Notes under the pieces: model-generated | Told to the model about the DNA's origin: nothing | Seen by the model: only the letters and a program-made list of their open reading frames with translations | The model's database searches: none | Position numbers and translations under genes: made by a program | Shown here: positions 327 to 48,254 of the stretch, in pieces | How positions within the stretch are numbered: the first letter of the stretch is position 1 | Layout of the letters: each line of letters opens with the position of its first letter | Assembly (NCBI GenBank): GCA_000004695.1 | Contig: CM000154.2 | Location: forward strand, 4,768,001 to 4,832,000 | DNA: 64,000 nucleotides | Direction: 5' to 3' | From: Dictyostelium discoideum | Lineage: Eukaryota

Positions 327-1935
327 TCATGATTCAAGTGGTTCAATATCATCATATAATATTTTAACATAAATGTTTATTGTTAATTTATCATCATCAC
401 TTAACCAACCATTCTTTTTATTAATTAATTTTGAAGCTAAAAATTTAGACCAACCTTTTCTCTCAATTTCTTCAAAAACTAAAATAATTTATATCAGTTA
501 TTTTTTTAAATAAAAATAATTTAAATAATTAATATTAAAAATAATATTTACCTTCTAGACCTTTTCTTGTAATGGATTTTGATTTATCCAAAAGATTAAC
601 CAATTCAAGAGTGAATTCTAATTTGTTAGGGTCTTCGTTATTATTATGTAAAAATAAAGAGAGGTGATCTTTTCCAGTTAGACTGCCATTTGGATAGATA
701 GATATTACAAATTCACGAGACACAATATCGAATGATGGAGAATATATGTATTCAGGGTGCGGGGTATTCTCAACAAGATTTGAATAGTTTGAAATGATCC
801 ATTTATTCGTATATCCTTGAGAAGTTAATTTCCATGAATTAATAAAATCATTTTTATTAAAATAATTATCATCGATTTCAGTAATTAATGATGAAAGTTC
901 ATCATTCTTTCTTTGAAGTTCACTACAAGTAATCTTTGATTTTTCAATTTCTTTGAGAAGTAATTCTTGAATTTTCATTGATTGATCTAATGTTGATGAT
1001 AGTTTATCAATTAATTTGCCCATAAATAATTGATGATTTACATTCTCTAAATGACGCTGTAACTCTGATCTCTTCATTTCAACTTTGCAACCATATTCAT
1101 AATATTTACATTGTATTGTAGAATTATTACAATCATTCTCAATATGTGATTTTATTTGATCTCTTTCAAAAAAATTTAAACAACCTTGTGGACAACCTAT
1201 TACAAATTTTGGGCACTCATCATAATGATTTTCTAATTGCACTTGAATGATACCATCACAAGCACAATATTCACATTTAACTAATTTGAAACCACATTGA
1301 TTTTCATGTTCTTTCAATGAATTTAATCTTAAAACTCTATCACATCCGATATGTGAACATTTTACAAATTTAAATTTACAATTTTGTATATGTCTATCTA
1401 ATTGATCTACATTTATTATTTCTTTACAACCATTCTCTTCATCTTTAATTAATTTTCTTTTTTCATTTTCTTCGTCTTTATTTTCTTCATTTTCATTTTC
1501 ATTTTCTTCATCCTCATCTTTATCTTCATCATCTTCTCCATTTTCTTCATCTTCATTTTCATCTTCATCATCTTCATTTTCTTCATCTTCATTTTCTTCA
1601 TCTTCATTTTCTTGATTGGCACCATCAATAAAATAATCCAAGTGGAATGAATAAATACAATTACATTCTTTTTTAGAAAAATTTTGTTCAATTACTAAAC
1701 ATCTTGATAAATTTTTAAATGATTTTACTTTACATCTACAAATCATACATTCTTGTTTAATTTCTAATGATTTCTCCCAACATTCTTGGCATGCATAATG
1801 ACCAGAACTACATTGATAAATTGATTTTTTATAAATTAATTCAAAACAAATTGGACATGTATATTTATTTTTCTTTTGTAATGATTCTTTATTTAATAAA
1901 ACATCATTGATTGTAAATTTTGAATATATTGACAT
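327..1935 (-). CDS. TRAF-like protein (N-terminal C3HC4 RING, TRAF-type zinc fingers, coiled coil, C-terminal MATH domain). Two exons: 552..1935 and 327..478, with intron 479..551.
   Basis: The 466 aa ORF 535..1935 starts at a real ATG. It carries RING motif C-P-I-C...C-x-H-x-C-x-x-C-W and TRAF Zn-finger Cys/His spacing, then WIISNYS...VNLLD (MATH). The ORF stop lies just past a GTAAAT donor. After a TTTTAG acceptor the frame continues (V)[42 protein letters not shown], ending at TGA 327..329, which completes the MATH domain. There is an internal acidic E/D repeat ([10 protein letters not shown]...) at about 1450..1640. Confidence 0.8.
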
Positions 1936-2329
1936 TCCGTTATAAAATAAAATATAAAATTAAAAAAAAAAAATAATAAAATAAAAAAACAAATAAAATT
2001 GAAAATTAAAAAAATATTTAATTAATAATATTAATAATAAAAAAAAAAAAAAAAAAAAGGTGTGTTAAAAAATAATTTTTTTTTTTTTTTTAAAAAATAA
2101 TACTAAAAATAGCTCCAAAAATAAAAAAAAAAAATTAAAATTTTAAGCGAACAAAAAAAAGTTATTTTAAGTAGTATCTTTATTTCATTAATTTTTTTTA
2201 TTTTTATTATTTTTTCAAAATAAATATAAAAAAAATAAATAAATAAATAAATAAAAAAAAAAAAAAAAAAAAAAAAAAAAAAAAAAAAAAAAAAAAAAAA
2301 AAAAAAAAAAAAAAAAAAAAAAAAATTAA

Positions 2330-2915
2330 TTGTTAATTTATTATCAATACTGAACCAACCACTCTTTTTATCATGAATTTCATTAATGCCACATTTATTT
2401 TCATGTTCTTCTAATGAATTTAATCTTAAACTATTTCACATCCAATATGTAAACATTTTACAAATTTAAATTTACAATTTTGTATATGTGTATCTAATTG
2501 ATCTACATTTATTATTTCTTTACAACCATTCTCTTTATATTTAATTAATTTTCTTTTTTCATTTTCTTTATTCTCTTCATTTTTTTCATCTTCATTTTCT
2601 TCTTGATTTGAACCATCAATACAATAATCCAAGTAGAATGAGTACATACAAAAACATTGTTTTTTACCAAAATCTTGTTCCATTACTAAACATCTTGATA
2701 AATCTTTAAATGATTTTACTTCTGATTTACAAATCATACATTCTTGTTTATTTTTTAAAGACATTCTTTACATGCATAATGACCAGATCTGCAATGATAA
2801 AAAAAAATATTCAAAACACTTTGGACATGTATATTTTTTTTTCTTTTGAATTAATTCTTGATTAAATAAAACTTGATTGATTGTAAATTTTGAATTAGCT
2901 GGCATTCGTTATAAA
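2330..2915 (-). pseudogene. Rearranged, truncated TRAF-like pseudogene fragment (MATH tail fused to Zn-finger and RING remnants).
   Basis: ORF 2426..2764 has RING/TRAF-zf similarity ([20 protein letters not shown]...[25 protein letters not shown]). It is flanked by frame-broken remnants of the MATH end (WFSIDNKLTIN-like) and of the N-terminal SGHYAC region. Confidence 0.65.
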
Positions 2916-46596: not shown

Positions 46597-46824
46597 ATTT
46601 ATACCAAATATTTAGTTTAGAAAAAAAAAAAAAAAAAAAAAAAAAAAAAAAAGAATTTAAAAATAAATAAAATTTTTTATTAAATCTAAAAAAAAAAAAA
46701 AAAAAAAGAAATAGTGTTTGTATATATATGTATATATTATTATATTTATTGTTATTGTTACATTTATTTTAATTATTTAATATAAAAATAATTGGATTTG
46801 TTTTTTTTATTTTTTTTTTTTATT

Positions 46825-48254
46825 TTATGGTAAAACTTGAATTCTAAGACCAATAACTAATTTATCTTCATCAGTTAACCAACCATTTGCAGAATCAACA
46901 TCAACAGTTTTTAAAGTTTTTGGATAACCCCAACCAGAAGTTGCACCACCATTAAAAGTATACTCTTGAATTCTATAAGTTCTATTTTTACGAGAATCTT
47001 GATTATTAAATACAAATGTAAATGAAACTTTTACAGCTGGTTCATTGATACTAACTCTATAGAGGTAAGCAGAGATATTACCTTTATTAGATTCATCATA
47101 ACCATTTGGGTAAAGTGTTAATTTGAATTTATTATTACCAACATCCAAAGGGACTGTACTAATACCTTCATTCACTCTTTTTAATTTATGAGTTGAAAAT
47201 GTTGCGAAAATAATTGAATTTTTAAATCTTGGTAATAGTGATAATTTATTTGAAGCGTCCATTGATAATTGTTCCAATTTAATCACCCTTTCTAAAAGTT
47301 TTTCATATTTATTATTGATTTGGTAGATTTGGTTCTTACATTCAACCAATTCCAATTGTTGGTTATTTATAACTTTGTCCATCTCAAATGAGTGATTCAC
47401 CTTTTCATAATGGTCGGCCAATTCGAATCTTTTGAAATCAATAGACTCATTTTTACTATTATTTAGACAACAATATTTACATTTTACAATTGTAAATTTA
47501 CAATCTTGATCTATGTGCAGTCTTAATTGTTCCCTTGGGAATGATTTTTTACAAGACTCGGATTGAGTGCATTGTATTCTAACTTTTGGACAAACTAAAG
47601 CATGAGCATCCAATTGACCTGGTATCTCCTTATCACAATGTAAACAATACTTTGAACTGAATTTACAATCTATTTTATGTTCGGCAATTTGCTTTAATCT
47701 TAATATTTTATCACATCCTGTGAATGGACATTTTTCAAATCTAAATTGACATTCAACTTGATGTTTCTCTAATGCTTCAACTGTAATTATCTCTTTACAA
47801 CCATTTGATTCATCCCTTATCAATGCTTCATTCATTGATGAATCATCAACATTTACATTTTCAATAAAGAAAAATGAATTTGGACAATAAACTTTTTTTT
47901 TTAAAAACTCATTTTCAATAAATCTATTTCTTGATAATTCATTCATTGAATTAACTGGTGTTCTACAAATCATACATTCTTTTTTATTTAATAATGAATC
48001 TGACCAACATGATTTACATGCTAAATGTCTAAAAAAAAAAAAAAAAAAAAAAAAAAAATTAATAAATATTTATCTTGTGTTATGTATATATATATATTTT
48101 TTTTTTTTTTCAATCCTTACCCATCTCTACATTGAAAAACTTCTTTTTTTGAAGAACTTGAATAATATAAATCAAAACAAATTGGGCATGTAAAATTATC
48201 TGATAGTGATTCATGATCTACTAAAAGTTCATTAATTGAATATTTTACTGTCAT
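46825..48254 (-). CDS. TRAF-like protein (RING, TRAF Zn fingers, MATH). Two exons: 48121..48254 and 46825..48028. Here the intron splits the RING finger instead of the MATH domain.
   Basis: Exon 1 reads MTVKYSINELLVDHESLSDNFTCPICFDLYYSSSSKKEVFQCRDG, then GTAAGG...poly-T...AG, then (G)[27 protein letters not shown]. This continues into the 382 aa ORF and ends with the MATH domain (...WLTDEDKLVIGLRIQVLP*). Confidence 0.8.

Follow-up and report, generated by a model that had tools for sequence, protein, structure and literature searches.

A TRAF-like RING gene array on chromosome 5 of Dictyostelium discoideum: probable birth-and-death evolution with apparent partial homogenization of the 5′ halves

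How a cluster of closely related genes, in which intact copies and broken ones stand side by side, came to be built is the question raised by a 64,000-nt stretch of Dictyostelium discoideum DNA (contig CM000154.2, positions 4,768,001 to 4,832,000; hereafter the window), which carries several genes for TRAF-like proteins with RING, TRAF-type zinc-finger, and MATH domains. The window has a G+C content of approximately 20%, poly-Asn tracts, and large open reading frames (ORFs) for polyketide synthases (PKS), and exact protein look-ups place it on chromosome 5 of strain AX4. A first-pass annotation, made from the sequence alone, proposed a birth-and-death cluster of four intact genes and at least six pseudogene fragments. 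The analysis described here indicates that the window very probably belongs to a tandem array of TRAF-like RING E3 ligase genes that is already known, and that this array has changed through duplication, decay, and growth of coding repeats, and probably also through conversion of 5′ halves and intron loss. Every TRAF-like sequence of the window lies on the minus strand, and tblastn searches with four long ORFs returned segments at the places already proposed and none elsewhere in the window at E < 1e-3. The four intact genes are the following.

552..1935 and 327..478, minus strand: exons of DdTRAFl (DDB_G0290931; Q54FD5/XP_635487), 511 aa, exact match
479..551, minus strand: DdTRAFl intron, 73 nt, phase 1, inside the MATH domain, GT..AG
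34360..35917 and 34105..34274, minus strand: exons of DdTRAFm (DDB_G0290965; Q54FC5), 575 aa, exact match
34275..34359, minus strand: DdTRAFm intron, 85 nt, phase 1, GT..AG
42568..43798 and 42278..42429, minus strand: exons of DG17/zfaA, or TrafD (DDB_G0290961; P11467), 460 aa, exact match
42430..42567, minus strand: DG17 intron, 138 nt, phase 1, with a (TAT)n repeat, GT..AG
48121..48254 and 46825..48028, minus strand: exons of TrafE (DDB_G0290971, DdTRAFe; Q54FB9), 445 aa, exact match
48029..48120, minus strand: TrafE intron, 92 nt, phase 2, within the RING between the codons for ...CRDG and HLAC..., GT..AG

All four genes are in frame, their spliced products are byte-identical to the public AX4 proteins, and the end coordinates first proposed for them proved exact; their introns have a G+C content of 4–10%. 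The names DdTRAFl, DdTRAFm, and DdTRAFe were given to DDB_G0290931, DDB_G0290965, and DDB_G0290971, respectively, by Dunn et al. (2018). The primers shared by trafC and trafD (Raykov et al., 2023; PMC10181826) fall at the ATG of DG17 (43776–43798) and at its last exon-2 codons (42281–42301), and also match the DDB_G0290883 locus; DG17 (DDB_G0290961) is therefore TrafD.

The domain identities first proposed agree with Pfam, except that the MATH domain of DdTRAFm is seen by a structure model instead. An N-terminal C3HC4 RING was matched by zf-C3HC4 and Sina_RING in all four genes (TrafE exon 1 included), and its ligands C27, C30, C42, H46, C49, C52, C63, and C66 are each present in all, or in no fewer than 90%, of 38 family members, across which the Cys and His residues of the RING and zinc fingers are kept; DdTRAFl and DdTRAFm retain all of them. 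The zf-TRAF family (PF02176) scored above cut-off in four of the four genes (E = 4e-8 to 4e-24), and MATH or MATH_2 was found at full length and above cut-off in DdTRAFl, DG17, and TrafE. Joining exon 2 extended the PF00917 match of DG17 from 6–77/113 (E = 2.6e-8) to 6–113/113 (E = 1.3e-19), and the PF22486 match of DdTRAFl from 3–89/136 to 3–136/136. The C-terminus of DdTRAFm matched no Pfam family even at E ≤ 10, and the same was found for the C-termini of the family members P0059 and P0068. An AlphaFold2 model of DdTRAFm, built from the 38-member family alignment and having a mean predicted local distance difference test score (pLDDT) of 75, contains helices at residues 254–337 and 341–417 (a 160-residue helix) and, after them, a beta-rich domain with strand pLDDT values of 80–96, and a Foldseek search with the C-terminal part found solved SPOP MATH structures (E of about 1e-9, target TM score of about 0.72). 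DdTRAFm is thus predicted to keep a divergent MATH fold, in a model whose input alignment holds MATH-bearing paralogues, and the model together with a 28-aa repeat period also predicts a coiled coil between its zinc fingers and MATH domain; the coiled coils of DdTRAFl, DG17, and TrafE are putative and assigned by alignment.

Five broken copies were located in the window.

2319..2905, minus strand: pseudogene A (tblastn frames), RING broken by frameshifts and a stop, one frameshift at about 2429
3025..4318, minus strand: pseudogene B, almost full length, at least three frameshifts (at about 4060, 3665, and 3290) and an in-frame stop
17016..17759, minus strand: pseudogene C, duplicate of B (5′ modules 97% identical), three in-frame stops and a deletion of about 220 bp
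37103..37778, minus strand: pseudogene D, 3′ half of a DdTRAFm-type gene (coiled-coil end and MATH), intron kept, two frameshifts
60725..60796, minus strand: relic E, about 24 N-terminal codons, nhmmer E = 4.3e-9 against the 5′-module profile, 16/23 identities in tblastn

Each of the five fragments listed by the first-pass annotation is real according to tblastn and nhmmer, the ends of all but 3025..4318 being slightly adjusted. Its count of at least six was too high for the window, since neither nhmmer with the 5′-module profile nor tblastn with seven queries at E ≤ 10 found anything there beyond these five. In pseudogene A, an internal deletion has brought the final 22 or so MATH codons up against the first zinc finger, and in pseudogene D the RING and zinc-finger part is gone. 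The surviving ORF of A (2426..2764) is annotated as DDB_G0290933 (112 aa) and that of C (17331..17759) as DDB_G0290941, so that these two “hypothetical proteins” are remnants of TRAF-like pseudogenes. The annotation of a long-read assembly models B and C as spliced genes (336 and 170 aa), in which introns were apparently placed over the frameshifts.

The origin of two of these fragments can be read from a segmental duplication.

3337..16998: tandem duplication unit 1, containing the 5′ two-thirds of pseudogene B, the promoter region, and a type I PKS gene
16999..33479: tandem duplication unit 2, containing a second PKS gene and broken by two gaps and a retroelement island

In a self-blastn comparison, segments 3337–3512, 3734–6197, 6247–15104, 15098–15265, and 16310–16925 matched 16999–33479 at 87–95% identity. 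The unit is approximately 13.3 kb in length, and each copy carries a type I PKS (KS, AT, DH, MT, ER, KR, ACP, and reductase; large ORFs at 5451–12971 and 18799–26256). Pseudogene C ends at the boundary 16999, and because the 3337/16999 boundary lies inside a TRAF-like gene, C was already cut short when it arose. No disabling mutation is common to B and C within the region that both retain. Tandem and segmental duplication, as in this unit carrying a PKS gene with a TRAF-like 5′ part, supplies new copies, and copies decay through frameshifts, stops, and deletions of the kinds listed above.

Change within intact copies is visible in their coding repeats. The acidic (NEDEE)n insertion that had been noticed in DdTRAFl is encoded by an array of 15-nt and 6-nt repeats at 1462..1613, as detected by TRF. 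The coiled-coil array of DdTRAFm (34700..35092; TRF periods of 84 and 108 nt) had been described as a threefold duplication of approximately 40 aa; it in fact has four units (36, 36, 28, and 28 aa), built on a 28-aa period that corresponds to four heptads. DdTRAFm-like proteins of other isolates have two to nine such units in 514–718 aa. Growth of coding repeats, of the 28-aa coiled-coil unit and of the acidic 15-nt repeat, is a further way in which array members change.

The window does not hold the whole array. It contains two assembly gaps, which the first-pass annotation had missed, in addition to a single N at 29937.

30580..30679: assembly gap, run of 100 N
32478..32577: assembly gap, run of 100 N

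The two gaps flank an integrase-like retroelement island (30680–32477). A long-read D. discoideum assembly (GCA_054883475.1, CM142511.1), whose proteins are identical to those of AX4, is collinear with the window from DdTRAFl to 30579, where it breaks, and again from DdTRAFm onward; the offset between the two, calculated from the positions of DdTRAFl, DdTRAFm, and DG17, jumps by approximately 39.6 kb across the gaps, and integrase ORFs also occur downstream of DdTRAFm in that assembly. An inventory of the gap-filling DNA covered 21 kb of the approximately 39.6 kb and found, besides a ricin-B lectin gene, approximately eight TRAF-like elements, most of them decayed: two single-exon genes that are intact (427 and 421 aa) and have no MATH intron, three copies with frameshifts, a zinc-finger/coiled-coil fragment in forward orientation, and two inverted fragments. 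Neither intact gene has a match at 90% identity or more among AX4 RefSeq proteins. The window therefore under-counts the array, with about 40 kb hidden at the gaps, where the identity of AX4 to the long-read sequence is presumed.

Gene content also differs between related genomes. With DG17 as the query, 61 proteins were retrieved; long-read genomes of Dictyostelium account for almost all of them, and their locus tags form tight runs. The counts of neighboring paralogues, as lower bounds, were at least 19 in ACTFIZ, at least 16 in ACTFIW, at least eight in ACTFIR, at least six in D. dimigraforme, at least two in D. citrinum, and at least one in D. firmibasis. In ACTFIR (GCA_054859385.1), the order TrafE, cysteine protease, DG17, AAA_11 gene, and DDB_G0290967 orthologue is kept at 86–91% DNA identity. 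Past the DDB_G0290967 orthologue the array is not collinear with AX4, in which no gene corresponds one-to-one to the TRAF-like genes found there (543, 597, 320, 352, 312, and more than 195 aa). The intact 543-aa gene occupies the position of pseudogene D; one-to-one orthology between D and ACTFIR_002736 is not supported, as their identity is approximately 76%, compared with 86–91% in the flanking single-copy DNA, and the two are positional counterparts. ACTFIR is labeled D. discoideum, and its dS (synonymous divergence) from AX4 in TrafE and DG17 is 0.10–0.14, which agrees with the remark of Holland et al. (2025) on a possible cryptic species. The 712-aa protein P0036 (ACTFIY_000994) has a second RING beginning in mid-protein and looks like a model that fuses two neighboring TRAF-like genes.

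The array shows tandem paralogues of graded divergence and pseudogenes with independent frameshifts, stops, and deletions. The 5′ modules, which lie in tandem, are 66–97% identical in DNA and give the tree (TrafE, (DG17, (DdTRAFm, (DdTRAFl, A, (B, C))))), in which the clade of DdTRAFl, DdTRAFm, A, B, and C has 98% bootstrap support; a tree of the MATH region joins DdTRAFm to pseudogene D (98.8%) and DG17 to TrafC (95%). The birth-and-death proposal is supported by the paralogues, their lesions, the 13.3-kb duplication, the gap copies, and the differences between isolates.

The introns add a further layer to this history. As first proposed, three genes have a MATH intron and one a RING intron: alignment and the GT..AG models place a phase-1 intron at one alignment column in DdTRAFl, DdTRAFm, and DG17 (73, 85, and 138 nt), and TrafE, which has no MATH intron, carries its phase-2 intron in the RING instead. 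Transcript data bear on these models to different degrees. Three contigs of approximately 1.4 kb (SRR24091723, SRR24091724, and SRR24091728) encode TrafE as a single unbroken ORF and align to the window in two blocks, 48279–48121 and 48029–46797, from which exactly the 92-nt RING intron is absent, showing that it is spliced out. No transcript-derived contigs are on record for DdTRAFl, DdTRAFm, or DG17, and the second exons of these genes, which transcripts might have contradicted, are supported by comparison. The 1987 DG17 protein entry (AAA33192.1) reads on across the MATH exon junction. At 138 nt, the intron of DG17 exceeds that of the ACTFIR orthologue (73 nt) by 65 nt and that of the paralogue TrafC (95 nt) by 43 nt, the (TAT)n repeat varying greatly in length among the three, while all of them keep the GT and AG sites, the reading frame of exon 2, and the stop. 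Exon 2 has a ratio of nonsynonymous to synonymous divergence (dN/dS) of about 0.2 between DG17 orthologues. These comparisons, together with the completion of the MATH match when exon 2 is joined, give indirect support to the MATH second exons. Raykov et al. (2023) make no statement as to whether their trafC and trafD clones were derived from cDNA.

Intron position does vary among the genes, as first noted; a correction concerns the copy at 3025..4318 (pseudogene B), which has no intron at the MATH site and runs in one frame through 3225..3052. In the MATH tree, the intron-less copies B, P0059, and P0068 form one clade (74% bootstrap) nested among intron-bearing genes (57–61%), and the simplest reading of this topology is that the intron was lost once in a sub-lineage. 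The reverse, that an intron-less ancestor acquired it through one insertion in the common ancestor of DG17, TrafC, DdTRAFl, and DdTRAFm, is rather unlikely, although it draws on the intron-less state of the outgroup TrafE, on the single clade of intron-less copies, and on the modest bootstrap values of their nesting; the intron-less copies fall within the intron-bearing group in the best MATH tree as well as in the 5′ tree, and gain on that topology would take at least two insertions at the same column and in the same phase, compared with one gain (or a loss in TrafE) and one loss. One sub-lineage of the array would then have lost its MATH intron.

Which of the intact genes are alive is a related question. 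Between AX4 and ACTFIR, dN/dS is 0.11 for TrafE and 0.29 for DG17, the mark of purifying selection on both, and the TrafE and TrafC proteins were detected in a life-cycle proteome. DdTRAFl, DdTRAFm, and DG17 proteins were not found in the searched part of the proteome supplements. DdTRAFl and DdTRAFm could be pseudogenes with open frames, leaving DG17/TrafD and TrafE as the functional genes, that is, two live and seven dead or dying. Consistent with this are their mutual dN/dS of approximately 0.7 in every domain, the invisibility of the DdTRAFm MATH domain to Pfam, the expansion of coding repeats in both genes, which is typical under relaxed constraint, the failure to find a member at 90% identity or more in other isolates, and their absence from the searched proteome supplements. 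We nevertheless consider this unlikely: the frames of 511 and 575 codons, the GT..AG sites, and all Cys and His residues of the RING and zinc fingers are intact; the DdTRAFm repeats are in frame and compatible with heptads, and its C-terminus has a predicted MATH fold with well-scored strands; a dN/dS of 0.7 between old paralogues fits diversifying selection as well; and the proteome absence holds for the searched part of the supplements.

Pure birth-and-death evolution, with little concerted evolution, does not describe the family, for in DdTRAFl, DdTRAFm, and P0059 synonymous divergence is approximately fivefold lower in the 5′ halves than in the 3′ halves. Between DdTRAFl and DdTRAFm, dS is 0.12 in the RING and then 0.16, 0.33, 0.62, and 0.59 toward and into the MATH domain; between DdTRAFm and P0059 it rises from 0.09 to 0.88 from 5′ to 3′; and among the three genes it is 0.09–0.12 in the RING and 0.6–0.95 in MATH. 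At codons for conserved amino acids, synonymous differences amount to 5–7% in codons 1–196 and 26–30% in codons 263–460 (Fisher p = 5e-6 to 2e-4). The gradient, together with upstream DNA that can be aligned, suggests gene conversion or recombination that homogenizes the 5′ half; such exchange would keep the promoter-proximal RING/zinc-finger half alike while the coiled-coil/MATH half diverges. We infer from these sequence comparisons a mixed mode of birth-and-death with partial gene conversion.

The alignable upstream DNA includes the shared segment that the first annotation had reported, which was indeed found before DdTRAFl, B, and C.

2160..2187, plus strand: upstream segment of DdTRAFl
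4570..4598, plus strand: upstream segment of pseudogene B
17933..17961, plus strand: upstream segment of pseudogene C

In the orientation of the genes it reads TGAAATAAA(A)GATAC.ACT.AAAATAACT, followed by CGCTTAAAATTTT in DdTRAFl and B only. The DdTRAFl copy lies approximately 225–250 nt before the ATG, and the three copies range from 174 to 280 nt. One further relic occurs in the gap-filling DNA, and the motif was found neither before DdTRAFm, DG17, or TrafE nor in the ACTFIR array. Since B and C are copies of each other, the likeness is effectively that of two lineages, and the segment is most simply residual paralogy between close paralogues; a regulatory element was rejected as the default, two of the three copies lying in the same duplication and before dead genes. 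It is very improbable that functional constraint on the RING and on a shared cis-regulatory site explains the 5′ and upstream likeness, for although the motif recurs exactly or almost so at three sites, had no match in shuffled sequence, and accompanies RING and zinc-finger residues that are strongly conserved family-wide, constraint on protein does not explain the roughly fivefold lower divergence of synonymous sites, and two of the three motif copies belong to one 91–93% identical duplication, with the motif missing before the other intact genes and in ACTFIR.

Several points weigh against an array shaped by duplication, decay, repeat growth, 5′ conversion, and intron loss. The dS gradient could in part reflect regional effects of mutation or codon usage, and the bootstrap values for the nesting of the intron-less copies leave room for a single intron gain. 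The mutual dN/dS of DdTRAFl and DdTRAFm means that one or both may be drifting toward pseudogenes despite their open frames, and the MATH region of DdTRAFm fails in Pfam at every threshold, its fold being a matter of prediction by the model. DdTRAFl, DdTRAFm, and DG17 have neither a transcript contig nor a match in the searched part of the proteome supplements. The sequence that fills the gaps belongs to another assembly, probably that of the laboratory strain AX2-214, which its project takes in (Holland et al., 2025), and its sameness to AX4 there is presumed.

The likely function of array members is drawn from the TrafE literature and, for the other genes, from domain homology. The RING would recruit an E2, the TRAF-type zinc fingers and coiled coil would mediate oligomerization, and the MATH/TRAF-C domain would bind partners. 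TrafE is an E3 ligase whose part in the response to membrane damage and in defense against mycobacteria has been characterized; it is recruited, in a RING-dependent manner, to damaged Mycobacterium-containing vacuoles and endolysosomes, where it is needed for ESCRT- and autophagy-dependent repair, and its knockout lowers K63-linked polyubiquitination of damaged compartments (Raykov et al., 2023). The same study found that TrafC reaches Mycobacterium-containing vacuoles and that the 95.6% similar TrafD/DG17 does not. The differences between TrafC and DG17 are mostly in the coiled-coil/MATH part (dN of 0.03–0.04 compared with 0.005 in the RING/zinc-finger part), which suggests that functional differences such as that in recruitment lie in this half. 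DG17/TrafD is a classical cAMP-inducible gene of the aggregation stage.

The four intact genes belong, with the same architecture, to the D. discoideum TRAF-like family (DdTRAFa–p; TrafA–E), the accounts of which by Dunn et al. (2018) and Raykov et al. (2023) do not describe the array, its pseudogenes, intron differences, variation in repeat number, or the assembly gap. They share with metazoan TRAF2/3/5/6 the order of RING, TRAF zinc fingers, coiled coil, and TRAF-C/MATH, and structural likeness to human TRAF6 has been reported (Raykov et al., 2023); identity to TRAF6 is just 20–26% or so, no orthology assignment can be made (Dunn et al., 2018), and the best solved matches of the DdTRAFm C-terminus are SPOP MATH domains rather than TRAF-C. 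SINA/Siah ligases were also considered, as Sina_RING reaches cut-off in DdTRAFm, DG17, and two fragments; a Siah-type identity was rejected because zf-TRAF and MATH score far higher and the weak Sina_ZnF match stays below cut-off. Dictyostelium is not known to have a tumor necrosis factor receptor pathway.

In their evolution, the closest parallels are of another kind. The MATH-BTB expansions of nematodes and grasses likewise form arrays with pseudogenes, variable content, and a fast-diverging recognition domain. The hypermutable tgrB/C locus of Dictyostelium, in an account that includes no TRAF genes, is also a tandem array with many pseudogenes, variable content, and a fast-evolving recognition domain (Holland et al., 2025). 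The present array differs from these in its RING-TRAF architecture, in place of BTB or TIG domains. By analogy, the array might be a modular, rapidly evolving recognition locus of amoebal cell-autonomous immunity, in which a shared promoter and a RING/zinc-finger “effector” half, held constant by recombination, would be combined with a MATH “recognition” half, a coiled-coil length (two to nine 28-aa units), and a copy number that diversify from strain to strain under pathogen pressure, a proposal that we regard as distinctly doubtful.

The genes between and beside the TRAF-like copies are varied. A papain-family cysteine protease gene (343-aa model, approximately 44900–46430, plus strand) lies between DG17 and TrafE and is divergent from DG17; it is presumably CP2/cprB, the cAMP-inducible partner gene of the 1987 paper. 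The intergenic region between DG17 and the protease contains a tandem repeat of approximately 100 bp with 91% identity (44465–44794). A 392-aa ORF (40227–41405, minus strand), whose position is kept in ACTFIR, has an AAA_11 helicase-type domain as its only domain and may be a truncated helicase-like gene. DDB_G0290967 (38120–39682, minus strand; 520 aa) has no Pfam domain and, in several isolates, counterparts that are at least 90% identical and vary in length from 508 to 523 aa. An alpha/beta-hydrolase gene (61775–62788, plus strand) falls, at 90% identity or more, into one cluster with a second AX4 paralogue and vegetative-specific protein H5; relic E is located approximately 1 kb upstream, which suggests that an old duplication brought the two here together. 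Also present are a 1617-aa low-complexity ORF (49183–54036, minus strand) with Thr/Pro-rich tracts and EKERL repeats, and a two-ORF gene (54800–59065, plus strand) that is a candidate for a xanthine dehydrogenase-like gene by the look of its sequence.

Much of what is reported here is confirmation, given that the genes are annotated, that DG17/TrafD and TrafE are well studied, and that the size of the family is published. The additions, which are incremental and partly based on small samples, are the hidden sequence of about 40 kb, the duplication origin of two fragments, the variation in repeat number, the 5′ homogenization, and the intron-less sub-lineage; within the limited literature that could be searched, no description of the evolution of this array was found. 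Should it prove to be a recognition locus, it would be likened to the MATH-BTB or TRIM expansions of animals and plants and to the tgr hotspot of Dictyostelium, a role undescribed for Dictyostelium TRAFs in the same literature. More immediately, AX4 censuses, and arguments from knockouts and redundancy, under-count the TRAF-like genes, because the gap holds at least two more intact ones, and the near-identical 5′ halves affect the specificity of primers, CRISPR guides, and RNA-seq mapping.

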